Source: an uncultured Pseudomonadota bacterium (GTDB taxonomy: Bacteria > Pseudomonadota > Alphaproteobacteria > Rs-D84). Taken from it: a stretch of DNA of 64,000 nucleotides. The translations under genes and the position numbers were made by a program. Under the pieces are notes generated by a model that saw only the letters and a program-made list of their open reading frames with translations, searched no databases and was not told where the DNA came from. The first letter of the stretch is position 1; every line of letters begins with the position of its first letter. The stretch lies in NCBI GenBank assembly GCA_902801125.1, contig CADCGT010000001.1, positions 97,101 through 161,100 on the forward strand. The letters run 5' to 3'. This document shows, piece by piece, positions 3,028 through 62,177 of the stretch.

Positions 3028-3486
3028 ATGGTACAAGAAATTAGATTTTGTAAGCCTGAGGGTGAATATTATTTTTTAAGTCCGTTGGCGGCATTTCCAA
3101 TAAAAATGTCTGTGGATGGTAAATTGTTTACTTTTCCGACGGTGGAACATTATTACCAGGCGATGAAATTTTATGTGTCTGATCCGCGTTTCCACATTGT
3201 TTTGCATCAAGACAATCCCGATATGGCGCGATTGCTTACAAAAACACCGGAATATAAAACAAATCGTCGCGCCAATTTTGATGGGCAGAAATTTGAAATT
3301 ATGGAAAACGCATTGCGCGCAAAGTTTAAACAAAATCCCGACGCGGCGGAAATGTTAAAATCTACGGGTGATGCAATATTGATAAAATCTTGCCCGGTGT
3401 GTTATAAGTGCGGTTTTGGGGAAGGTTCCGGATTTAATCGTATTGGAAAAGTGTTGATGCAAATTCGTGCCGAATTGCAAAAGTAA
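3028..3486 (+). CDS. NADAR (DUF1768, YbiA-like) domain protein
   Basis: EHYYQAMKF motif characteristic of NADAR/YbiA. ATG is 1 nt after the RND stop, so the two genes appear translationally coupled. Confidence 0.7.
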   Translation: MVQEIRFCKPEGEYYFLSPLAAFPIKMSVDGKLFTFPTVEHYYQAMKFYVSDPRFHIVLHQDNPDMARLLTKTPEYKTNRRANFDGQKFEIMENALRAKFKQNPDAAEMLKSTGDAILIKSCPVCYKCGFGEGSGFNRIGKVLMQIRAELQK

Positions 3487-3570: not shown

Positions 3571-4167
3571 ATGTTAAAACCGGTCAAGGTTGTTTTATTT
3601 GATTTCGATGGAACACTGTCTGGGCGTGATACGAATATGGAATTTTCACGGTTCTGTTTTCGGCATTCGATTCGACCCTGGGTGTTTTTGCCATGGATGG
3701 GGGTGTGTGCGATTGTGCGCCTGTTTAATCCAGGGGGCATTTGGTGGCGGCAAAATATTCGCCGTTTTATTAGTGCAGATTTGGTGCGTCGTTTCGCAAA
3801 GGATTTTATAAAGCAACATAAACGCGAACGCTTTGGGTGGGCGGCGGACAAGGTTGCCGATGAACGCGCGCGTGGAAATATGGTTGTTTTATTGACTGCG
3901 TCGCCGGATTATTTGATTCCAAAATTGGTTGGTGACATGAAATTTGATGCGGTAATTTGTTCACAGATGGATTCTGCGCGTCCGTGGAAATATAAAACAT
4001 TTTGTTGGGGTAAAAATAAAGTCGTGTTGATGGATGCGTGGGCGCGTGAACATAAATTTATACCACATGTTGTGCGCGCATATTCGGACAGTAAATCTGA
4101 TTTACCAATGATGGAAATCGCCGACCAACAGATATGGATAAACCCAAAAACCGGTTTGCCACGATAG
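3571..4167 (+). CDS. HAD-superfamily hydrolase (subfamily IB, phosphoserine-phosphatase-like)
   Basis: N-terminal LFDFDGTL (DxDGT motif I). Confidence 0.75.
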   Translation: MLKPVKVVLFDFDGTLSGRDTNMEFSRFCFRHSIRPWVFLPWMGVCAIVRLFNPGGIWWRQNIRRFISADLVRRFAKDFIKQHKRERFGWAADKVADERARGNMVVLLTASPDYLIPKLVGDMKFDAVICSQMDSARPWKYKTFCWGKNKVVLMDAWAREHKFIPHVVRAYSDSKSDLPMMEIADQQIWINPKTGLPR

Positions 4168-4202
4168 TGGTTAGTGCGGGCGCGGATGCGCCCGTGTTTT
4201 TT
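4165..4202 (+). repeat. Short member of the TTAGTGG-hairpin element family, doubling as terminator
   Basis: tagtggttagtg overlaps the stop codon, followed by hairpin cgggcgcggatgcgcccg and a T-run. Confidence 0.6.
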
Positions 4203-4386
4203 ATGTTTATATATGATAAAATGCCTGTGTCGGCGTATTCTGCCGATGGGGCGTCGTGAACAACATTTGAACATGACAGACGTCGCAAAAATGTTTCATA
4301 TTTCACGCAAAGAATATATGTTAAAATGCAAATGATATTTGTGCTATACGACAAAATCCGCCGTATAGCTGATTTTTTACTGGCCA

Positions 4387-9582: not shown

Positions 9583-9831
9583 TTACAGACCAAGTGCATT
9601 GCGATACATCTGGGTCAATTCGTCGGTTTCGTCCAATTCATCTGGGTCCATTTTCCGCAGGCGTATCATTTGGCGAATATACTTTGGGTCAAATCCCGCG
9701 GATTTGGCTTCGCTGTAAATCTCTTTGATGTCGGCCGCGATTGCCGCCGAATCTTCGTTTAATTTTTCAATGCGTTCAATAATGGACAGTAATTGGGTGT
9801 TATCAAGTGCACCGTGATTTGCGTTTTTCAT
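9583..9831 (-). CDS. gapR: GapR-like nucleoid-associated protein (DUF2312/UPF0335)
   Basis: 82 aa with clear similarity to Caulobacter GapR (LSIIERIEKLNEDSAAIAADIKEIYSEAKSAGFD). Confidence 0.8.
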   Translation of the reverse strand: MKNANHGALDNTQLLSIIERIEKLNEDSAAIAADIKEIYSEAKSAGFDPKYIRQMIRLRKMDPDELDETDELTQMYRNALGL

Positions 9832-9914
9832 AGATGTTTTCCCCTTGTTAAAATGTACGTTTTATGATATACCATAAATTGTAAAAATCAACAAGAAACC
9901 CGAGAGAGTATAAA

Positions 9915-11285
9915 ATGTCCAGATTGACGAAAATAACGGCGTCTATTGGCCCAAGTTGCGAAAGTGAAAGCATGTTGCGTCAAATGATTTTGGCGGGGGT
10001 AAATGTATGCCGCATAAATTTTAGTCATGATACCGGTGAAGTTCAGGGAAATAAAATCGATGCCTTGCGTCGCATTTCACGGGCGTTGAATATTCCGGTC
10101 GGAATTTTAATAGACCTGCAGGGCCCAAAACATCGAATTGGAAATTTTGCAACCGAAGAAAAATACCCACTTTCGGTTGGACAAACTTTTGTTTTTGATT
10201 CAGACCCGACGCCCGGTAATTCCGAACGGGTGAATTTACCCGATTCGGATGTTTTGGAATCTTTGCATGTCGGTGAACGGATATTGTTGAACGATGGTAA
10301 AATTGAAATGCGGGTTGATGATGTCGCGCCGGGGCGCGTGCGCGCAACCGTCCTGCGCGGGACCGAGATTTGGTCGCGCCGGGGATTTAACCTGCCGGAT
10401 ACAGAGATAAAAACATCGGCGTTGACCGATAAAGACCGCGCCGATTTAGAATATGCATTGACCAAAAATCCGGACTGGGTTGCGGTGTCCTTTGTGCAAC
10501 GGGCGGAAGATATTGCCGCGGTGCGCGATTTTATTACCGCGCGGACGGCGGCGCCGATTAAAATTATGGCAAAAATAGAACGCAAAAATGCGGTCGAACG
10601 AATCGCAGATATCGCCGCCGCCGCCGATGGGATTATGATTGCCCGTGGAGATTTGGCCGTTGAATTGCCATACGAACAGGTTCCGGCAATTTCGCGTCAC
10701 ATTATTCGTGAATGTCGACGATTAAATCGGCCGGTTGTTATGGCAACACAAATGTTGGGGTCTATGGTGGCAAGTGAATTCCCAACCCGTGCAGAAATAA
10801 GTGATGTTGCAAATGCGGCATATCTGCGCGTGGATTCAACGATGACATCCGAAGAAACAACAATCGGTGCAAATCCATTAAAGGTTATTGAAACCATGGA
10901 TAAAATTTTATCTTATTCGGACGCCGATTCGGTTGAACATTCGGGCGATTGGTTGCGCACAGAAAATGTTCCGGAAAACGATTGGTCGCGTTCGGTGGCA
11001 TCGATGGCGCACCTTAATCACGCATCGGCAATCGTTGTTTTTGCGCGTGATTCAGATGCCGTGACCGCCGTGTCGTGTCGACGGGTTGATATACCAATTG
11101 TCGCCGTATGTGATAATGAATTGATTGCAAACCAATTATGTTTGTTGCGTGGTGTAAAATCGGTCTATACGCCGGATTTGTTCGCATTGCGCGATTTGCG
11201 TTCAATTGCAAATATATGCGAAATCAAATCCGGCAAGGTTGTTATTGTTGACGGCGATAATGTAAGCCTGCGTGATTTAGATTAA
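9915..11285 (+). CDS. pyk: pyruvate kinase
   Basis: Pyruvate-kinase barrel and C-terminal domain motifs (ASIGP, MIARGDLAVE). Confidence 0.9.
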   Translation: MSRLTKITASIGPSCESESMLRQMILAGVNVCRINFSHDTGEVQGNKIDALRRISRALNIPVGILIDLQGPKHRIGNFATEEKYPLSVGQTFVFDSDPTPGNSERVNLPDSDVLESLHVGERILLNDGKIEMRVDDVAPGRVRATVLRGTEIWSRRGFNLPDTEIKTSALTDKDRADLEYALTKNPDWVAVSFVQRAEDIAAVRDFITARTAAPIKIMAKIERKNAVERIADIAAAADGIMIARGDLAVELPYEQVPAISRHIIRECRRLNRPVVMATQMLGSMVASEFPTRAEISDVANAAYLRVDSTMTSEETTIGANPLKVIETMDKILSYSDADSVEHSGDWLRTENVPENDWSRSVASMAHLNHASAIVVFARDSDAVTAVSCRRVDIPIVAVCDNELIANQLCLLRGVKSVYTPDLFALRDLRSIANICEIKSGKVVIVDGDNVSLRDLD

Positions 11286-19593: not shown

Positions 19594-19646
19594 GTAAGTG
19601 GATAATGTAAGTGGTTAGTAAAACAGCGCAATGCGCTGTTTTTGTT
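19594..19646 (+). repeat. TTAGTGG-family element with terminator
   Basis: gtaagtggataatgtaagtggttagtaaaac followed by hairpin cagcgcaatgcgctg and a T-run. Confidence 0.55.
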
Positions 19647-19687
19647 TGTCTGGAATAATTTTATAATAGTGAAATAATTCAAGATTC

Positions 19688-19758
19688 TACTAACCACTAA
19701 CACCCGTCGCGGCACGCCACGCCGCGGTCGTGACGGACTATCCACTAATCACTAATAT
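19688..19758 (-). repeat. TTAGTGG-hairpin element, minus-strand copy directly 3' of mnmE
   Basis: Reverse complement reads attagtgattagtggatagt-ccgtcacgaccgcggcgtggcgtgccgcgacgg-gtgttagtggttagta. This is near-identical in architecture to the 49832-49945 copy. Confidence 0.7.
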
Positions 19759-22413: not shown

Positions 22414-22472
22414 TTAGTGGTTAGTGGTTAGTGTTAGTGGTTAGTATGCGGGGCGTTGCCCCGCATTTTTTA
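22414..22472 (+). repeat. TTAGTGG heptamer array plus rho-independent terminator
   Basis: ttagtggttagtggttagtgttagtggttagt directly after the yebC stop, then hairpin gcggggcgttgccccgc and a T-run. Confidence 0.75.
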
Positions 22473-36221: not shown

Positions 36222-36713
36222 TTATTTGCCAAAATATTTTTTAAGTGTCTGGTATGCAGATGAAATTTTGGTAAATTCGTTGCCGGCCATGTTTGTGCCC
36301 GCGGTATCGGGGTGGTATTTCTTGGCCAATGCGCGATACCGGGTGCCGACTTCGCGCCAAGACGCCGTAATCGGTAAATCCAATGTGCGGAATGCCGCCG
36401 TTATATTGGCCGGGACAGATTTTTTCGGCGGCATTTTGTCAAATGTGCTGCGTCCCGTTATAAAATCGTTAAGGAATTTTATGTAATCGGCACTGTCTTG
36501 TTTAGAACGTTGTTTTATTGGTTCACCGAATGTTTGTCGTTCCCAATCTTCTTCGATTTCGTCCGGCGTCATGTCCGCATAGAAATTCCAATTTTTATTA
36601 TATTCGGCGGCATGTTCTTGGCAAAAATTCCAATATTCACGCAAATCGCGCGTTTTTGGCGCACGGCATGTGCCGGCCTTTTGGCAACCGGGAAAATCAC
36701 ATTTTTTTATCAT
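36222..36713 (-). CDS. J-domain protein with N-terminal Cys-rich region
   Basis: C-terminal J-domain with HPD (YRALAKKYHPDTAG). N-terminal CxxC-type motifs. Confidence 0.65.
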   Translation of the reverse strand: MIKKCDFPGCQKAGTCRAPKTRDLREYWNFCQEHAAEYNKNWNFYADMTPDEIEEDWERQTFGEPIKQRSKQDSADYIKFLNDFITGRSTFDKMPPKKSVPANITAAFRTLDLPITASWREVGTRYRALAKKYHPDTAGTNMAGNEFTKISSAYQTLKKYFGK

Positions 36714-37576
36714 TTGTTATGAACCTTGGTTTCAGAAAGTGGATGATGTTCGGCAACAACCGCCGCCAATTTTTCGGGCAACACATGCGTATAGATTTGT
36801 GTTGTTGAAATGTCTTCGTGTCCCAACATTGTTTGTATCGCGCGCAGGTTTGCCCCATGTGCCAAAAGGTGCGACGCGAACGAATGTCGCAGAACGTGTG
36901 GCGTGACGCGGTTTGGTTCAATCCCGGCAAGCACCGCACATTTTTTCAATATCTTGAAAAAACCATCGCGCGTAATGTGGCCCGCCGCCGAATTTGATGG
37001 GAATATAAATTCTGAATCATCGGGGGTGCGCAAAGATATCCATTTTTCTAATGCGTGTTGTGCGGCCTCGTGTATGGGGACAATGCGTTCTTTGGCGCCT
37101 TTGCCGTGAATCAATAATCGGTCACCAAGGTTCGCCGTCATCGGCAACGCGCACAGTTCCGATACGCGCAATCCCGCCGCATACATCAATTCAAGCATCG
37201 CGCGCAAACGCACCGATGTGCGAATGTCGCCCGCCGATGAAAGTAATAATTCGATTTCTTGGGGCGTAAGTAATTTTGGTAATGGTTTTGCGCGTTTTGG
37301 CAATTCTATATTTGTTGTTGGATTTGTCGTGATGATTTTTTCCAACATTAAAAATTTATAAAAACTGCGCAGGCAACTTGCCCGGCGTGCGATGGACGAT
37401 GGTTGCACATCGGCGTTGGATAAATACGATTGTATGTCGGATTCGGTTGCCCCCAAAAGTCCATTTGGCATCGCCGCGTCCGCGTGGTTCAGGTCATTCG
37501 CATACCCCGCAAGTGTGTTCGCACTGCGACCCTTTTCGGCGGACATGGCCTCAAGAAAAACATCTATGTAATTCAT
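36710..37576 (-). CDS. xerD: tyrosine recombinase XerC/XerD family
   Basis: C-terminal HVLRHSFA...LGHEDISTTQIYTHV catalytic motif. C/D paralogue not resolved. Confidence 0.8.
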   Translation of the reverse strand: MNYIDVFLEAMSAEKGRSANTLAGYANDLNHADAAMPNGLLGATESDIQSYLSNADVQPSSIARRASCLRSFYKFLMLEKIITTNPTTNIELPKRAKPLPKLLTPQEIELLLSSAGDIRTSVRLRAMLELMYAAGLRVSELCALPMTANLGDRLLIHGKGAKERIVPIHEAAQHALEKWISLRTPDDSEFIFPSNSAAGHITRDGFFKILKKCAVLAGIEPNRVTPHVLRHSFASHLLAHGANLRAIQTMLGHEDISTTQIYTHVLPEKLAAVVAEHHPLSETKVHNK

Positions 37577-39390: not shown

Positions 39391-41148
39391 TTGTCTGTGC
39401 GCCTGTTGCCTGATTACCTTGTCAACCAAATCGCCGCCGGCGAAGTTGTTGAAAACGGCGCAAGTGTCGTCAAAGAAACGGTTGAAAATGCACTGGACGC
39501 CGGTTCGGACCAGATTATTGTCGATGTCGTTGATGGTGGTCGCACGATGATAAACATCGTTGACAATGGTTCGGGAATGTCGCGCGAAGATTTGGCAAAA
39601 TGTATCGAACGGCATGCAACATCTAAATTGCCCGACGATGATTTGATGAACATAAACTTTATGGGTTTCCGGGGCGAGGCATTACCTTCTATCGCGTCTG
39701 TATCTGAAATGTCGATTGATACATGTAATGGGGCGGATTCAAATGGGTGGCATTTGGATTGTGAAAAGGGCGAAATTCGGCCGTCCGATTGGCAAAGTGG
39801 AACACGGATTCGTGTTAAAAACCTGTTTGCGAAAACGCCGGCGCGGTTAAAGTTTTTGAAAACCGACCGTGCGGAAAATATGGCGGTGTTGGATGTTATA
39901 AAACGGCTGGCCTTGGCGCGGACCGATGTTGGGTTTGTGTTGAACAACAAATGGCGGTTTCCAAAAAATCAACCGCTGATGGAACGAATCGTTGCCGTTA
40001 TGGGCGAAGATGTGCGCGGGGCGATGCATGCGGTTGGTGCCGAATCGGCATCAACGGGCGGAATGAAATTGACGGGTTATATTTCCGACCCAACATTGCG
40101 ACGCGCGTCGTCGGTGGACCAATTTTTATTTGTGAACGGCCGGCCCGTCAAAGACAAAGTCTTGGTTGGTGCGTTGCGTGCCGCGTATATGGATGTTATG
40201 CATGCGCGGGAATTCCCGCTGTGCGCGCTGTATTTGACTTTGCCGGCGTCCGCGGTCGATGTAAATGTGTCCCCAACCAAGACCGAGGTTCATTTTTTGG
40301 AACCGAATCATGTGCGCGCGTTTATTATAAAAAGCCTGCGCGAAGTGTTGGCGCGAACTATGGTTGCAAATGCCCCGGTGGCGGGTGAAGAAAAAATTTA
40401 TTTTCACGGCCCGATTATATCACGTGCAAATGTGCCGACGAATCAATCGCCCCGTGCGGTCTTTCAACCGCGTCCGGTGGGCGGATTGTTTGCCGGAAAT
40501 AAAAATCCAGACTTTGCGGGAACCGCACTGGGCGCGCCCGCGCATACGCCGGCCGTGGATACAAATGTTGACGATATTTTTGAAAATCGCCCCCTGGGTT
40601 GGGTAATTGGGCAAATTGCAAATAAATATATTTTGGCGACAAATGGGGAATCATTGGTTGTTATTGACCAACACGCCGCGCACGAACGCATAACATACGA
40701 AAAGATGCGCAAACACGAAATAAAATCCCAACCACTGTTGACGCCGATTGTGGTGCAAATGCGCGCCGAAGATGTTGCGGCGATTTTGTCCATCGCGGAT
40801 GAAATGCGGGCGTCAGGTTTGGTGCTGGACGCGTTCGGCGAAGACGCAATTGCGATTTTTGAAAAACCGGCGGATTGGGATTTGAATTGGGCAAGTGTCC
40901 TGCACGATATCGCGGACGAGGTTCGCGCATACGGACATTCGGCGCAACTGGGTGAACGATTGCATTTGAAATTGGCAAATCACGCGTGCCATCATTCGGT
41001 GCGTGCGGGTCAAAAATTAGATATGAATCAAATGGACGCGTTGCTGCGCGATATTGAACGAACCGAACACGGGGGCGAATGTAATCACGGCCGCCCGGTG
41101 TATAAATTTATTCCGATATCGGAAATGGATACTTGGTTTGAGAGATAG
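39391..41148 (+). CDS. mutL: DNA mismatch repair protein MutL
   Basis: GHKL ATPase motifs (AGEVVENG, DNGSGM) and a C-terminal dimerisation domain. TTG start. Confidence 0.9.
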   Translation: MSVRLLPDYLVNQIAAGEVVENGASVVKETVENALDAGSDQIIVDVVDGGRTMINIVDNGSGMSREDLAKCIERHATSKLPDDDLMNINFMGFRGEALPSIASVSEMSIDTCNGADSNGWHLDCEKGEIRPSDWQSGTRIRVKNLFAKTPARLKFLKTDRAENMAVLDVIKRLALARTDVGFVLNNKWRFPKNQPLMERIVAVMGEDVRGAMHAVGAESASTGGMKLTGYISDPTLRRASSVDQFLFVNGRPVKDKVLVGALRAAYMDVMHAREFPLCALYLTLPASAVDVNVSPTKTEVHFLEPNHVRAFIIKSLREVLARTMVANAPVAGEEKIYFHGPIISRANVPTNQSPRAVFQPRPVGGLFAGNKNPDFAGTALGAPAHTPAVDTNVDDIFENRPLGWVIGQIANKYILATNGESLVVIDQHAAHERITYEKMRKHEIKSQPLLTPIVVQMRAEDVAAILSIADEMRASGLVLDAFGEDAIAIFEKPADWDLNWASVLHDIADEVRAYGHSAQLGERLHLKLANHACHHSVRAGQKLDMNQMDALLRDIERTEHGGECNHGRPVYKFIPISEMDTWFER

Positions 41149-41150
41149 CG

Positions 41151-41208
41151 GGTAGTGATTAGTGGTTAGTGTTAGTGGTTAGTAAAACCCGCGGAAATCC
41201 GCGGGGTT
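41151..41208 (+). repeat. TTAGTGG-hairpin element 3' of mutL
   Basis: ggtagtgattagtggttagtgttagtggttagt followed by hairpin cccgcggaaatccgcggg. Confidence 0.75.
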
Positions 41209-41219
41209 CATGCGTAAAA

Positions 41220-41338
41220 AAACCAAGGTTTTTTCTATACCCCCCCGGCGGAAAAACCGAAATTTGTAACCAATTGTTTTTACGCAATAAAAAATTTTTG
41301 ATTTTTTGAAAAAAAGTGTTGATTTTAAACCTTGGTTT
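41220..41338. promoter_or_regulatory. Candidate invertible segment (97-bp core between 11-bp inverted repeats aaaccaaggtt / aaccttggttt), orientation A
   Basis: Core 41231-41327 is the reverse complement (about 90% identity) of core 61313-61409, while the flanking sequences are collinear. Confidence 0.6.
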
Positions 41339-41375
41339 ATTGTACACTTTTTATATAGGAAAAGAGAGGAAAAAT

Positions 41376-42446
41376 ATGATAAAAAAATCATTTTTACTTG
41401 GCGCGATTGTATCGATTATTACAACAAATGCCATTGCAAATCAGGTTATAACCAGTCAGACATATGTTGATAACGCAGATGCATTGAAAGTAAATATTGC
41501 CCAAGGTGTCGGCACAAACAACGCAAATGTTGGTAAAACTTTGGTTGTAAATTCACAGGGAAATTTGGAATTGGGAACTGTTTCGGCCGATAATTTTGTA
41601 GAAGACAGTATAACCGACGGTGTGACGAACAAAGCCCCATCCGAAAACGCCGTCCACGATGCATTGGCGGATAAACAGGATACAATCCCGGCCGCGTCAT
41701 CGGATGTTCTTGATGAAGATTGGGGAATAAGCAAAACTTTGTTGGCAACAACGGACACCGCCGGTCAAGTTGAACAAATGGGTTTTACCCAATATGGTGA
41801 ACTGGATAGTAGTAGCCTTGAATATTGGCATCTTGATGCAGATGAGTATAGTTCGATGGATTCGATGGTGCCATCTTATGCGACGCTATACTTAGGAGAC
41901 CAACAGTTGCAAAAATATATTAATGATAGGATGCAAAATGAAATTCCGCAAAGTGGAAGGGTTGTGTATCAATGGGATCACGATAATGGTAGTAACATAG
42001 CTGTCAATCTACAACCTAACGCTTCTGCATGGTTAGAGAGCTATGTCAAAGGGACAGGTTTGGTGACGAAAACAAATGCCCGTGGTATTGTTGGTGAACG
42101 TCAAATTATTGAAACGGCGGATGTTGCAAATTACGGGACCGGCACCGCCACCGAACAACAAATCCAAGAAATATCTATCCCCACAATGGGTGCGGTTATG
42201 GCGGCAATTTCGAATAATACCCCGACATTACCAACCGGTACGGCGAATACGGTCGTTATGTATAATAATTCGGGCGCAATTGGTGGGTCACGTGCGATTT
42301 ACGACGGGTCGGCAACATATAACGCGACAAATGATGCAACCAAATTGGTGGCCGCAAATGGTGTGTCAAAAATGAAGGAATGTACCCGGTGGATTGATAA
42401 CGCCGCGCACACCGACGAGAATTGTTTGCTGTGGCGGTTGCCATAG
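41376..42446 (+). CDS. secreted hypothetical protein, paralogue of 61458-62177
   Basis: Signal peptide. N- and C-termini conserved with the paralogue, including two Cys near the C-terminus. RBS AGAGAGGA. Confidence 0.6.
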   Translation: MIKKSFLLGAIVSIITTNAIANQVITSQTYVDNADALKVNIAQGVGTNNANVGKTLVVNSQGNLELGTVSADNFVEDSITDGVTNKAPSENAVHDALADKQDTIPAASSDVLDEDWGISKTLLATTDTAGQVEQMGFTQYGELDSSSLEYWHLDADEYSSMDSMVPSYATLYLGDQQLQKYINDRMQNEIPQSGRVVYQWDHDNGSNIAVNLQPNASAWLESYVKGTGLVTKTNARGIVGERQIIETADVANYGTGTATEQQIQEISIPTMGAVMAAISNNTPTLPTGTANTVVMYNNSGAIGGSRAIYDGSATYNATNDATKLVAANGVSKMKECTRWIDNAAHTDENCLLWRLP

Positions 42447-58915: not shown

Positions 58916-60490
58916 ATGAGACCAGGTCTATCGGAAGATTTAATCGCACGCGTTTTGGGTGCGGCGCCAAAATATACTTTGGCGGAATTAGAAGAAAAAT
59001 TCCCGCCACGCAATTTGCCGGATGGGGCGATGGTGACGCGTTTCGCACCAAGTCCAACCGGGTATATGCACCTTGGTGGCCTGTACCAGGCATTGATAGA
59101 TTCCAAACTTGCGTATGATACCGGTGGCGTGTTTATGTTGCGCATAGAAGATACAGACACCAAACGCGAAGTCAAAGATGCGGTCCAATTGATAATAGAT
59201 TCTTTGAATAAATTTGGAATATCGTATAACGATATGCCTGAATACGGGCCATATTATCAATCGCAACGCAAAGATATTTATCATTCGGTTGCGGCGGAAT
59301 TGTTGCGAACCGGGCGTGCATACCCATGCTTTTTAACCGCGGACGATATGGAACGCATTCGCGCGGAACAATCCGCGGCGGGCTTTGCCACCGGAATATA
59401 TGGCGAATTTGCACGCGACCGTGATATTACCCCGGACGAGATTATTCGGCGCATGGATAATGGCGCGGTGCCGACGATTCGTTTGTATTCGACCGGTGAT
59501 TCGGCACGGCGTATTTTCTGTAAAGATGCGGTGCGCGGTTCAATCGGGTTTCCGGAAAACAATGAAGATATTGTTTTAATTAAATCGAATGATGGGTTGC
59601 CAACCTATCATTTTGCGCACCTGTGCGATGACCATTTTATGCGCACCACACATGTTATTCGTGGGGAAGAATGGTTGCCGTCATTGCCATTGCATACACA
59701 ATTATTTCGTATGATGGGGTGGCAACCGCCGATGTATATTCATACATCTACGATTGATAAAATCGATAGCGAAACGGGCAAGCAACGCAAATTATCAAAA
59801 CGCAAAGACCCCGAAAGCAATGTCGCATTTTTCTTGGCCGATGGTTGGCCGACGGGCGCGGTGTTGGAATACCTTGGGAATATTGCGGCGTCGGGATATG
59901 AAGAGGCAAAATTAAAAGGCACGGTGAAAACAATCTGGGAATATGCAATCAAGCCTAAAAAAATTCCTATGTCGGGCGCGTTGTTCGATATGAAGAAATT
60001 GGAATGGTGGGCCAAAGAGTATATTGGCGCAATGCCGGTTCCCGATTTGGTGCGCGCGGTTACCGATTGGGCAAATGAATATGGTGATGAAAAACAAAAA
60101 AGTCAGGTCGCAGACCAGGCGTATTTAACAAATGTTTTGGCGATTGAACGCGACAACCCGAAACGTGTGCGCAAAGATTTTATTACATGGCGCCAGACAT
60201 TGGAAATCGTAGAATTTTTCTTTGATGAATTGTTTGTGCCGAACACTGAATACGCATATAACCGCGATGTGCTAAATGCGTTTTTGGATACATTTAATAT
60301 TGCGGATGACAAAGACACTTGGTGGAATAAAATTGTTGAAATCGCACAACGGTTCGGGGTTAAAAATGGCGATGTTGCGATGAATCTGCGCGTGGCCCTT
60401 TCGGGGCGGACAAACACGCCGGATTTGTATTCCATAATAACGGTAATGGGCGCAGAACGCGTGATTAAAAGGATAAAGGCGGTAATGTGA
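58916..60490 (+). CDS. gltX: glutamyl-tRNA synthetase
   Basis: Class I HLGG (HIGH-type) motif and KLSKR (KMSKS) motif. AAGGA RBS upstream of ATG 58916. Confidence 0.85.
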   Translation: MRPGLSEDLIARVLGAAPKYTLAELEEKFPPRNLPDGAMVTRFAPSPTGYMHLGGLYQALIDSKLAYDTGGVFMLRIEDTDTKREVKDAVQLIIDSLNKFGISYNDMPEYGPYYQSQRKDIYHSVAAELLRTGRAYPCFLTADDMERIRAEQSAAGFATGIYGEFARDRDITPDEIIRRMDNGAVPTIRLYSTGDSARRIFCKDAVRGSIGFPENNEDIVLIKSNDGLPTYHFAHLCDDHFMRTTHVIRGEEWLPSLPLHTQLFRMMGWQPPMYIHTSTIDKIDSETGKQRKLSKRKDPESNVAFFLADGWPTGAVLEYLGNIAASGYEEAKLKGTVKTIWEYAIKPKKIPMSGALFDMKKLEWWAKEYIGAMPVPDLVRAVTDWANEYGDEKQKSQVADQAYLTNVLAIERDNPKRVRKDFITWRQTLEIVEFFFDELFVPNTEYAYNRDVLNAFLDTFNIADDKDTWWNKIVEIAQRFGVKNGDVAMNLRVALSGRTNTPDLYSIITVMGAERVIKRIKAVM

Positions 60491-61224
60491 CAAACACAAA
60501 ACGGGTGCGTTTGAAAAATGTGCGGCGCGATGGGCGGGCGTCGCGTATGTTGCGTTGCCTGCGGGCGACGGGGCTGTTTCGGTGGGAACGAAAATCCACA
60601 AAATCGGAAGAGGTTATGAATATCCTTACCCATGGAATTGGTATCGGCCTTGCGATTGCGGGTTTAACATTGTTGGTTGTGTTCGCGGCAATTTATGGAA
60701 ACGCGTGGTCGGTTGTGTCGTGTGCAATTTTTGGCGCAACCATGTTCACGCTTTATTTTGGTTCAACAATGTGTCATGCACTTATTGGTCGGCGCGGCGA
60801 ATGCTTTTTCGAAGTTTGGGATAACATTGCCATCTATGCGTTGATTGCCGGCACATACACGCCGTTTTTACTGGTCAACCTGCGCGGGGCGATTGGATGG
60901 ACGGTGTTTGGAATACTGTGGGCGATTGTGATTTTTGGTGCGGTGACCAAGATTCGCAACCCGCACCAGCAACCAAAATGGACGGTCGCACTGTATTTAA
61001 TAATGGGGTGGACGTTGCTGTTTATATTGCCGGTAATGATACGTAATATTCCACCGCGGGGGCTGTGGTTTATACTGGCGGGTGGATTGTCATACACGGT
61101 TGGGGTGATATTCTACCTTTGGCGGCGATTAAAATTTTCACATGCGATATGGCACCTGTTTGTAATTGGCGGGACGGTGTGTTTTTTCTTTGCGGTGCTG
61201 TATGGCGCGATACTTGACATTTAG
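60487..61224 (+). CDS. hemolysin-III / PAQR family membrane protein
   Basis: 7-TM protein with an EEVMNILTHGIG motif. Start (GTG overlapping the gltX stop) is uncertain. Confidence 0.7.
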   Translation: MTNTKRVRLKNVRRDGRASRMLRCLRATGLFRWERKSTKSEEVMNILTHGIGIGLAIAGLTLLVVFAAIYGNAWSVVSCAIFGATMFTLYFGSTMCHALIGRRGECFFEVWDNIAIYALIAGTYTPFLLVNLRGAIGWTVFGILWAIVIFGAVTKIRNPHQQPKWTVALYLIMGWTLLFILPVMIRNIPPRGLWFILAGGLSYTVGVIFYLWRRLKFSHAIWHLFVIGGTVCFFFAVLYGAILDI

Positions 61225-61290
61225 TGATTAGTGATTAGTGGTTAGTGTTAGTGGTTAGTGAATGATGAACCCAGCGGAATCCGCAGGGTT
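61221..61290 (+). repeat. TTAGTGG-hairpin element 3' of the hemolysin-III gene
   Basis: ttagtgattagtgattagtggttagtgttagtggttagtg followed by hairpin cccagcggaatccgcaggg. Confidence 0.75.
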
Positions 61291-61301
61291 CACGCGTAAA
61301 A

Positions 61302-61420
61302 AAACCAAGGTTTAAAATCAACACTTTTTTTCAAAAAATCAAAATTTTGTTTTTTCGTAAAAACAATTACTTACAAATTTCGGTTTTTCTGCCGGGGGTG
61401 TATAGAAAAAACCTTGGTTT
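61302..61420. promoter_or_regulatory. Candidate invertible segment, orientation B (inverted relative to 41220-41338)
   Basis: Same 11-bp inverted repeats. Core 61313-61409 is the reverse complement of 41231-41327. The downstream aaccttggtttattgtacactttttatatagga leader is identical at both loci. Confidence 0.6.
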
Positions 61421-61457
61421 ATTGTACACTTTTTATATAGGAATATAGGGGAAAAAT

Positions 61458-62177
61458 ATGAGCAAAAAAACACTTTTATTTGGTGCAATTGCATCGATTA
61501 TCGCAATCAATTCAGTTATTGCGGATACAGTTGTTACTTCACGCAACTATGTAGATACCCGGGACGCGTTGAAACAAGATAAAATCACCGCCGGAACCAC
61601 GGGTAATGTTGTTCTGTATAACGGCACACAAAACGGTCAAACACAATTTAGTGAACGCGCGATTTATGATGGAACAAATGAATATGATTCTTCAACCGAC
61701 GCAAACAAACTGATTACCGCCGGTGCAGTGGATGGTATGGTTGGCGATGTATATGATTATGTAGATGACGAGATTTCTAATATTCCGGCCCCAGAATTGC
61801 CGACCGGGGAACCAAATTATGCGGTATTGTACGACAGTAATGGTAATATTGGTGGTGAGACCCCAATAGATTATTATGGCAGCGCATGGTTTGATAGTGA
61901 AGGCGGTGCAATGATAAACGGGCATGATGAAGATTTGATAACCGCCAAGGCGTTGAGGGAAAATTTGATATATGATATAAGTACCCAACATGACGATCAT
62001 GCAGACGGGGCAATTATAACAGGTCAGGCACTTATAAGATATGCGCAACCGCTTAAGACCTGTGCCGGATGGGCGGATGGAACAACAACACCGGATGCAA
62101 CCCACACCAATGCAAATTGCGTATTGTGGAATTTTCCAGAAGGAGAATACTTTTGGGAAAGTGTCGGGAGAGATTAA
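61458..62177 (+). CDS. secreted hypothetical protein, paralogue of 41376-42446
   Basis: Signal peptide. Conserved N-terminal (VxTSxxYVDxxDALK) and C-terminal (C...NC.LW) blocks, variable middle. Confidence 0.6.
   Translation: MSKKTLLFGAIASIIAINSVIADTVVTSRNYVDTRDALKQDKITAGTTGNVVLYNGTQNGQTQFSERAIYDGTNEYDSSTDANKLITAGAVDGMVGDVYDYVDDEISNIPAPELPTGEPNYAVLYDSNGNIGGETPIDYYGSAWFDSEGGAMINGHDEDLITAKALRENLIYDISTQHDDHADGAIITGQALIRYAQPLKTCAGWADGTTTPDATHTNANCVLWNFPEGEYFWESVGRD

Follow-up and report, generated by a model that had tools for sequence, protein, structure and literature searches.

Here we describe a 105-bp DNA segment that precedes each of two secreted-protein genes in a 64,000-nucleotide stretch (the window) of contig CADCGT010000001.1, from an uncultured alphaproteobacterium of the order Rs-D84 (assembly GCA_902801125.1). 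Comparison of assemblies supports the segment as an active inversion switch, with both orientations present at one locus in different samples. We propose that it is an inverton turned by an Mpi-type serine invertase acting in trans, that each turn joins or parts the two halves of a promoter split across a recombination site, and that the outcome is phase variation of secreted proteins; we put the probability of this model as a whole at roughly 80%.

The two loci of the window share one plan. Aligned without gaps, the 97-bp core at 41231-41327 (locus 1) agrees with the reverse complement of the core at 61313-61409 (locus 2) at 89 of 97 positions, compared with 36 of 97 when both are read forward, and between the central dinucleotides of the flanking sites (41227-41331 and 61309-61413) the reverse-complement identity is 97/105. 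The best reverse-complement match of a 97-mer scored 90, where the maximum over 20 shuffles was 47. A preliminary description of the window had reported the cores as reverse complements of about 90% identity, in loci otherwise collinear and with an identical leader, and the alignment that it proposed bears this out on both sides: upstream, the loci are collinear across a hairpin and arrays of TTAGTG repeats, and downstream, a 23-nt leader (ATTGTACACTTTTTATATAGGAA) is identical at both, with 37 of 40 bases agreeing as far as the ATG. The inverted repeats that it noted are perfect and measure 12 bp rather than 11, with AAACCAAGGTTT at 41220-41231 and 61302-61313 and AAACCTTGGTTT at 41327-41338 and 61409-61420. 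Allowing at most one mismatch, the 12-mer has five matches in the window against 0.49 expected, and the four exact ones are the repeats of the two loci.

Each repeat lies within a longer recombination site, and these sites define the segment that turns. At locus 1 the left site (41213..41238) is a 26-bp, hix/pix-like sequence, CGTAAAAAAACC-AA-GGTTTTTTCTAT, with its central AA at 41225-41226, and is kept in more than 100 copies of the element family described below; the right site (41320..41345) reads TGATTTTAAACC-TT-GGTTTATTGTAC, with its central TT at 41332-41333. The 105 bp between the central dinucleotides (41227..41331) form the invertible segment, which stands here in orientation A, meaning that its TTGATT end (TTGAYT across the family, where Y is C or T) faces the target gene; in orientation B this end faces away. 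On the plus strand, the putative -35 hexamer TTGATT (41319..41324) occupies the inner edge of the segment, preceded on its 5' side by an A/T-rich tract (AAAAATTTTTGATTTTTTGAAAAAAAGTG, 41290..41318) that is a candidate UP-element or a region for accessory-protein binding or bending. In orientation A the hexamer is 18 nt from a putative fixed -10, TACACT (41343..41348, plus strand), in the leader, and the right site falls within this spacer. A ribosome-binding site (GAGAGG, 41364-41369) then leads into target gene 1 (41376..42446, plus strand), which encodes a secreted protein of 356 amino acids. At locus 2 the segment (61309..61413) lies in orientation B between a left site at 61295..61320 (central AA 61307-61308) and a right site at 61402..61427 (central TT 61414-61415). 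Its TTGATT (61316..61321) is on the minus strand, aimed at hlyIII and away from target gene 2 (61458..62177, plus strand), which encodes a secreted paralogue of 239 amino acids; the fixed -10-like TACACT (61425..61430, plus strand) has no -35 partner in this orientation, GTATAG/TATAGA standing at the -35 position. The genes upstream of the switches are mutL (39391-41148) at locus 1 and an HlyIII-family gene (60487-61224) at locus 2. No Rfam model came near its gathering score in the element, and inspection by eye found no clear 10.5-bp phasing of its A-tracts.

That the segment turns in place, as the preliminary description had surmised in calling it a promoter-inversion switch, is seen at locus 1, where the same succession of mutL, element and gene 1 occurs in orientation A in the window and in contig L047 and in orientation B in two other assemblies, L165 (ERZ1104449 scaffold_1, 1,005,766 bp) and L166 (ERZ28612972), both retrieved through an identical MutL protein (585 amino acids, exact match). 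In BLAST comparisons with the window, the left flanks of L165 and L166 match on the plus strand at 99.7-99.9% identity over 4157 bp and the right flank of L165 likewise matches on the plus strand, at 94.7% over 2290 bp (L166 stops 55 bp past the element), and the element of locus 1 matches both on the minus strand, at 91% over 134 bp. L047, whose orientation is that of the window, is a contig of the window's own strain (99.95% identical). It opens with its own leader and gene start in reverse complement, and the junction falls exactly on the left repeat; because an assembly at k=141 should need reads carrying the other junction to produce such a fold-back, both junction types would have been present in one sample. 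Contig L171 folds back in like manner at the repeat of another element in the same species, and we take the two contigs as supporting evidence that both orientations can coexist within a sample.

A second case comes from relatives, at a locus where the element adjoins a gene for a recombinase. Here L050-52 and L053 encode an identical recombinase (P0028) and have flanks 99.9-100% identical over 1500 bp on each side, and the core between them is inverted. The right repeat at this locus is imperfect (TATCC-TT-GG versus AAACC-AA-GG), and after inversion the T/A mismatch has moved with the inner arm. The exchange is therefore confined to the central CC-AA-GG, as would be expected of a serine invertase cutting at the central dinucleotide with a presumed 2-bp stagger. 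Other metagenome pairs that looked inverted when judged by 80-bp flanks proved to be paralogues once 1.5-kb flanks were compared, so that only L050-52 versus L053 held; L074 versus L139 is a possible allele pair only.

The anatomy of the sites and the neighbour of the element in relatives support a serine Mpi/Hin-type invertase mechanism, and not a fim-type one, as far as homology can tell. The sites are 26-bp dyads of the hix/pix type, with palindromic arms that end in AAACC and GGTTT around an asymmetric central AA/TT, and the AAACCTTGGTTT core also occurs in a site of the Escherichia coli K-12 prophage e14 within stfP, CTCTCGAAAACCTTGGTTTGGGAGAA. In L011 a gene for a 202-residue serine recombinase starts 105 bp from a copy of the element. 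Its homologues of about 200 residues are 72-100% identical among the best 120 matches, and every orthologue with readable context (L011, L050-57, L133, L155) has an element 107-121 bp 5' of its ATG. The recombinase gene lies on one side of this element and a divergent gene on the other; the product of the latter is an unknown protein of 204 residues, a YadA-anchor adhesin or a target-family protein. These recombinases carry a Resolvase domain (PF00239, E 1e-28 to 1e-30) and a C-terminal helix-turn-helix (HTH_23 and HTH_7 matches near or below their cut-offs), and the proteins of the relatives give full-length matches to NF009949, the NCBIfam model of the 'master DNA invertase Mpi family', at 254.6-263.7 bits (E-values of 6e-76 to 1e-78). 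Their best relatives in the PDB are structures of Gin (4m6f, 3uj3); identity to E. coli PinE is 24%, with the Y-x-R-x-S-T, R-L-x-R-S and G-R-P motifs conserved and the catalytic residues aligned. In the model, a gene elsewhere in the genome would encode a small serine recombinase of the Mpi/Hin/Gin/Pin type, which would bind both sites, cut at their central AA/TT dinucleotides and rotate the segment; like Mpi in Bacteroides fragilis, this one enzyme would serve every copy in trans.

The switch of the window belongs to a multi-copy family. A search for invertases and for more copies of the repeat pair, which the preliminary description had suggested, gave an invertase beside the element in relatives and none in the window, together with more than 100 further copies of the element. 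The copies were collected with the pattern AACCAAGGTTTN{85,112}AAACCTTGGTT, run over one genome per species and then over Joint Genome Institute (JGI) metagenomes. Among representative genomes it found 46 loci, about 40 of them in metagenome-assembled genomes (MAGs) of Rs-D84; these come from uncultured rumen and gut Alphaproteobacteria that go under the label Candidatus Enterousia or 'uncultured proteobacterium'. RUG13256 has 13 copies, and RGIG8185 and RUG774 have 10 and 7. The metagenomes added 107 loci, and the parts read of ERZ1104449 scaffold_1, which is of the window's species, hold six. A scan of the JGI metagenomes with the window-specific leader AACCTTGGTTTATTGTACACTTTTTATATAGGAA gave no match, and the species was found instead in ENA and Logan assemblies. 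Brought into a common orientation, the copies align as a left site, about 45 variable bases, ATTG(A/T)TTTTAC, an A/T tract ending in GAAAAAAAGTG, TTGACT or TTGATT, and the right site; between species the sites are kept and the inner part of the core has drifted. Published work on Enterousia, a member of order Rs-D84 with genomes of 0.75-1.0 Mb, with which the 1,005,766-bp scaffold carrying the window's mutL agrees, is confined to metabolism and genome reduction (PMC12306168), and a search of a literature collection found no paper tying Rs-D84 or Enterousia to DNA inversion. This multi-copy element family of small-genome gut Alphaproteobacteria is previously undescribed.

Orientation across the family is strongly biased. 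Among 117 copies, 72 can be classified by their target gene, and 62 of these stand in orientation B, like locus 61313, and 10 in A, like locus 41231 (about 85% one way); all 13 copies of RUG13256 are in B. In 65 non-redundant elements the -35-like hexamer is TTGACT (51) or TTGATT (14) with no exception, and the adjoining GAAAAAAAGTG is conserved at 83-100% per position. On the gene side, 39 of the 65 have TACACT in the outer flank, 18 nt from TTGAYT, and 19 more have ACGCTT, which can be read as TACGCT one base over. Flanks on the other side mostly lack the final T (CAACAC, TCAACA, TATACA, TACGCC), with TACACT in 2/65. Beside the invertase gene, the rarer of the two orientations (L053) brings about TTGATT-17-TACTAT in the direction of the divergent gene, and the orientation of L050 leaves no -10.

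From the invariant TTGAYT, the gene-side bias to TACACT or TACGCT and the TTGATT-17-TACTAT of L053 we infer a split promoter. The segment would carry the -35 (TTGACT or TTGATT) and a UP-like A/T tract at its extreme edge, and the -10 (TACACT) would stay where it is, in the target gene's leader. With one hexamer riding on the segment and the other outside it, the promoter spacer would contain the recombination site. Orientation A, as at 41231-41327, would place -35 and -10 18 nt apart and turn gene 41376 ON, and orientation B, as at 61313-61409, would point the -35 away and leave gene 61458 OFF.

Several observations weigh against this model, and some of them could favour other explanations. 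A generic promoter scan calls no hybrid promoter, TTGATT plus TACACT reaching 8/12, under its threshold. The conserved GTGTTGA resembles the outer arm of the non-gene-side site, and its conservation could reflect recombinase binding rather than a -35. The uniform B orientation in RUG13256 fits switches that are mostly OFF but would also fit B being ON. Inversion might be active but follow another logic, with B expressing the gene from a promoter that lies wholly inside the segment and reads out of its other end, or with the segment serving as something else, such as a terminator, operator or bidirectional element, so that inversion would modulate expression and not switch it. The prevalence of B (62 of 72 classifiable copies, besides the 13 of 13 in RUG13256) would suit such a scheme, as would the presence of GTGTTGA in the non-gene-side outer arm, where it may be a recombinase-binding determinant, and a conserved GTAAAA(T/C)AAT (TAAAAT-like) that reads towards the gene in orientation B. 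We nevertheless think it unlikely. In orientation B, neither TAAAAT nor the leader TACACT has an acceptable -35 16-18 nt away; without a hybrid promoter it is hard to account for the difference in the -10-like hexamer between the gene side and the non-gene side, or for its fixed spacing of 17-18 nt from the invariant TTGAYT; and the invertase-adjacent locus makes its TTGATT-17-TACTAT in the minority orientation only.

Other points against the model concern whether switching goes on at present. Locus 61313 stood in orientation B in all four assemblies in which it was seen (including L048, L180 and the partial contig L049), and its switching activity is suggested by its sequence. No invertase gene was found in the 64-kb window or in the roughly 110 kb read of the same species' 1-Mb scaffold, searched by tblastn with the L011 invertase and with Hin over the window and loci, six pieces of ERZ1104449 scaffold_1 being covered, and two homologue searches showed no invertase on the 1,005,766-bp contig among the matches listed. 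A guess at the invertase locus by synteny was rejected: ligA lies 3' of the invertase in L155, but the 670-residue open reading frame of the window is not ligA. For the window's genome, the putative enzyme is linked to the switch through homology of the system in relatives. The fold-back contigs, for their part, count as supporting evidence and not as proof of mixed orientation, given a perfectly palindromic metagenome contig of 6324 bp (L125), which folds at 3162 inside a coding gene, bears a chance match to the repeat pattern and is an artefact unrelated to the family; artefacts of this type evidently exist. An ancient inversion fixed between duplicated copies, with no switching today, would account for the single orientation of locus 61313 and for the lack of an invertase in the sequence read for the species. 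It is very improbable, however, when strains with an identical MutL and a 99.7% identical left flank differ in the orientation of locus 1, when L050-52 and L053 differ in orientation between 1.5-kb flanks identical at 99.9-100%, when the fold-back contigs point to both states in single samples, and when the sites are conserved across species while the inner core drifts.

As to the enzyme, the NF009949 score of the relatives' proteins (254-264 bits) falls just under the curated cut-off of 272, and the 107-bp spacing of the crossovers is very short for an enhancer-dependent invertasome of the Hin type; both count against the serine invertase that we propose. The preliminary description had likened the architecture to fim-type or Bacteroides-type switches, and the Bacteroides half of this analogy stands, with an Mpi-like serine invertase in relatives, whereas the fim half does not, the sites being of the hix/pix-like serine type. 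A fim-type switch would be turned by a tyrosine recombinase, for which the XerC/D-family gene at 36710-37576 is the evident candidate, as the sole recombinase gene of the window, 3.6 kb off, and with weak matches to models of tyrosine-type DNA invertases (62 bits, where the cut-off is 221). That gene passes the tyrosine-recombinase model NF001399 (300.9 bits, cut-off 279), has XerD (TIGR02225) as its best equivalog model at 294.7 bits, under the cut-off of 329.6, and lies among lptF/G, greA and mutL in a neighbourhood conserved in L165-167; by profile and setting it is an XerD-like housekeeping gene, in keeping with the earlier remark that nothing links it to the switch. No tyrosine recombinase adjoins the elements at the loci read, the consistent neighbour in relatives is a serine recombinase, and the sites are serine-type dyads with a central dinucleotide and a core shared with the e14 site, so that we give the tyrosine explanation hardly any credence. 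A miniature inverted-repeat transposable element or an assembly artefact is no more probable, for although the element is short, multi-copy, intergenic and bounded by inverted repeats, with many copies at contig ends and a palindromic artefact contig (L125) on record, its 72 classifiable copies lie at the same distance before one gene family with a common leader, no target-site duplications (direct repeats) appear in the flanks read, transposons do not invert in place between unaltered flanks, assembler k-mers are longer than the 12-bp repeat, and each orientation of locus 1 occurs in two independent assemblies (window and L047, L165 and L166).

On one side of nearly every classifiable element, the first open reading frame belongs to a single paralogous family of secreted proteins, at a fixed distance and behind the common leader. 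Members run from 93 to 582 amino acids and share a signal peptide, the invariant motif T/S-S-x-x-Y-V-D, a middle part of modular build and, at the C terminus, C...C-x-L-W. The product of gene 41376 shows the signal peptide, T-S-x-x-Y-V-D and C...C-x-L-W, and two paralogous secreted-protein genes lie behind the switches of the window, as the preliminary description had it; at least six further paralogues are encoded on the 1-Mb scaffold of its species. The family has no match in Pfam, PHROG or PDB. An AlphaFold model of the gene 61458 product has a predicted local distance difference test score of 70 and a predicted template modelling (TM) score of 0.36, and Foldseek gave nothing significant, its best matches being a domain of the Hsf adhesin (E 0.46) and the minor tail protein of a phage (E 1.2e-3, TM 0.14). 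The switch would let this gut bacterium, whose genome measures about 1 Mb, change its cell surface by phase or antigenic variation. Two paralogues of the target family (P0227 and P0156; L178 9760-9960, L173/L174 ~9760-9990) have no invertible element upstream. They follow a different conserved leader of about 230 nt, with a hairpin CTCCAACC-N4-GGTTGGAG and, later, AACCTCCAACCAC...GGTGGTTTTTT, which looks like a terminator/antiterminator pair and has no Rfam match.

Some copies of the element depart from the usual plan. On ERZ1104449 scaffold_1, a 122-bp element (L170 10892-11013) has the TTGATT, A/T-rich half at both ends and lacks the variable half; it may be genuinely rearranged, a 'double-headed' element, or else a chimera that the assembly made of the two orientations. 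At the corresponding locus of L171 (1057-1169), the contig that folds back at the repeat, the element is normal and in orientation B. Some elements have terminator-type flanks on both sides and others leader-like flanks on both sides (L012 2787-2899; L121 1576; L028, L033, L044, L040 (CAMVAR MAG)), a pattern that recombination between different elements, and hence larger chromosomal inversions, would leave. In L049 1-110 (ERZ28613754 scaffold_234912), the switch of gene 61458 has a promoter-distal core half wholly unlike that of the window (…AAAAACAA|CGGGTTAGCGATTTTCAATTTTTTCAAAATTCAGGCGTAAAAAAACC) and an identical TTGATT half; the alternative half also occurs at L170 9847 and 18921, which suggests that core halves may be exchanged between copies. 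Beyond the clade, unrelated low-GC organisms (L122 12040-12260; L118 3170-3400; L144, L149) encode a serine recombinase of 189 residues, 25-27% identical, and about 75 bp past it lies a 113-bp segment flanked by GGTACAAAACCAAGGTTTTTTACC ... GCAGAAAAAACCTTGGTTTATTAC, followed by a gene; from these loci, mini-invertons with the same site core exist outside the Alphaproteobacteria. In practice, the elements break assemblies and yield fold-back or chimeric contigs, which is relevant when Rs-D84 genomes are binned.

The surroundings of the two switches hold repeats of another kind. The preliminary description had drawn a module of about 230 bp, of which the inverted repeats, core and leader stand; the TTAGTGG repeats and the GC hairpin that it included are context outside the switch, because TTAGTG arrays recur at seven places in the window and across the clade, 3' of many genes, which at the two loci are mutL and hlyIII. 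The heptamer TTAGTG(G/A) makes up arrays at 4164-4176, 19608-19755, 22414-22446, 41152-41184, 49828-49924 and 61221-61260 and in many Rs-D84 loci of other genomes, with stop codons in several frames; the arrays are a clade-wide intergenic repeat unrelated to the switch. The GC hairpin of the window at 41188-41205, in the gap between mutL and the switch, has a T-run on the minus strand only and would terminate transcripts running from the switch towards mutL, not mutL's own; the corresponding hairpin of other genomes carries the T-run on the opposite side. In some strains (L165 ~4268-4305; L169 ~9750-9790; L170/L171) a GC-rich insert of about 37 bp, GTCCGTCCCGGCACCGTTTGGTGCCGCGGCCGCGACGGGTG, lies within the TTAGTG arrays; it is absent from locus 1 of the window and may be a small mobile hairpin element.

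The interest of the system lies in its host lineage, in how densely a genome of about 1 Mb is set with switches and in the probable split-promoter design. The host is an uncultured gut alphaproteobacterium, and at least 13 invertible promoters before fast-evolving secreted proteins in less than 1 Mb (one genome) suggest that surface variation is central to its lifestyle; immune evasion, phage evasion and partner attachment are possible purposes, and the switches mark out which proteins matter. If the -35 and -10 are indeed split, how a serine invertase synapses sites 107 bp apart becomes a question of mechanistic interest, and the compact parts, 26-bp sites and a 105-bp cassette, could serve as a small genetic switch. 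Taken furthest, and as a tentative idea to which we give a little less than even odds, the system would be a serine-invertase switch pared down to a minimum: the promoter spacer would itself be the recombination site, a 105-bp UP-like/-35 cassette would turn against a fixed -10 with no room for a classical Fis enhancer, and one Mpi-like invertase would serve at least ten cassettes, giving a bacterium that probably depends on a host or partner a combinatorial repertoire of secreted, fibre- or adhesin-like proteins, the whole perhaps having been acquired from Bacteroidota.

Among known systems, fimS of E. coli, with FimB and FimE, resembles the switch in being a short invertible promoter segment with short inverted repeats that stands before a surface-structure gene and, if our model holds, in working as an ON/OFF device. 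Fim-type switches are turned by tyrosine recombinases encoded beside them. The present element differs in its serine-type site anatomy and enzyme, and the only tyrosine recombinase nearby is XerD-like. The serine invertases Hin, Gin, Cin and Pin act on the Salmonella H-segment, the G segment of phage Mu, the C segment of phage P1 and the P segment of E. coli e14, respectively. With these enzymes the recombinases of the relatives share the Resolvase domain and C-terminal helix-turn-helix, the catalytic Y-x-R-x-S-T and the G-R-P arm, Gin being the closest solved structure, and the sites share the 26-bp dyad with its asymmetric central dinucleotide and, in e14, the AAACCTTGGTTT core. Hin flips a promoter, its sites being 26 bp long, its segment about 1 kb and its Fis enhancer 65 bp (PMC3798978), and classical Hin/Gin/Cin/Pin segments of about 1-4 kb require the Fis-bound enhancer (PMC3798978). 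By contrast, identity to these enzymes is 24-26%, the crossovers of the present element lie 107 bp apart, leaving no room for a 65-bp enhancer and its loops, and the target loci are many. More than 75% of catalogued invertons are shorter than 300 bases (PMC11602134), as is the element; like those catalogued with PhaseFinder or DeepInverton it has inverted repeats, a promoter-sized segment and both orientations in sequence data, and the Rs-D84 family is not described in the inverton catalogues (PMC11602134).

By analogy, the closest known system is Mpi (FinA) of B. fragilis, a single serine invertase that inverts 13 regions, seven of them promoters of capsular polysaccharides (PMC4747536, PMC3090145, PMC10403206); similarity of the B. 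fragilis repeats to those of hin is reported in the title of Patrick et al. 2003 (via PMC3090145). The Rs-D84 system differs in its host, an alphaproteobacterium with a genome of about 1 Mb and not a member of the Bacteroidota, and in an NF009949 score below the cut-off; in its repeat core (AAACC-AA-GGTTT), its 105-bp segment and a sigma-70-like promoter that would be split across the site; in targets that are single secreted-protein genes and not polysaccharide operons; and in having an element always directly 5' of the invertase gene. Like Mpi (FinA/Ssr2), it appears to pair a small serine recombinase with many dispersed, short invertible segments that share a common repeat and stand before genes for surface structures in a gut bacterium, and it would thereby extend the Mpi-type design of one master invertase and many promoters beyond the Bacteroidota.

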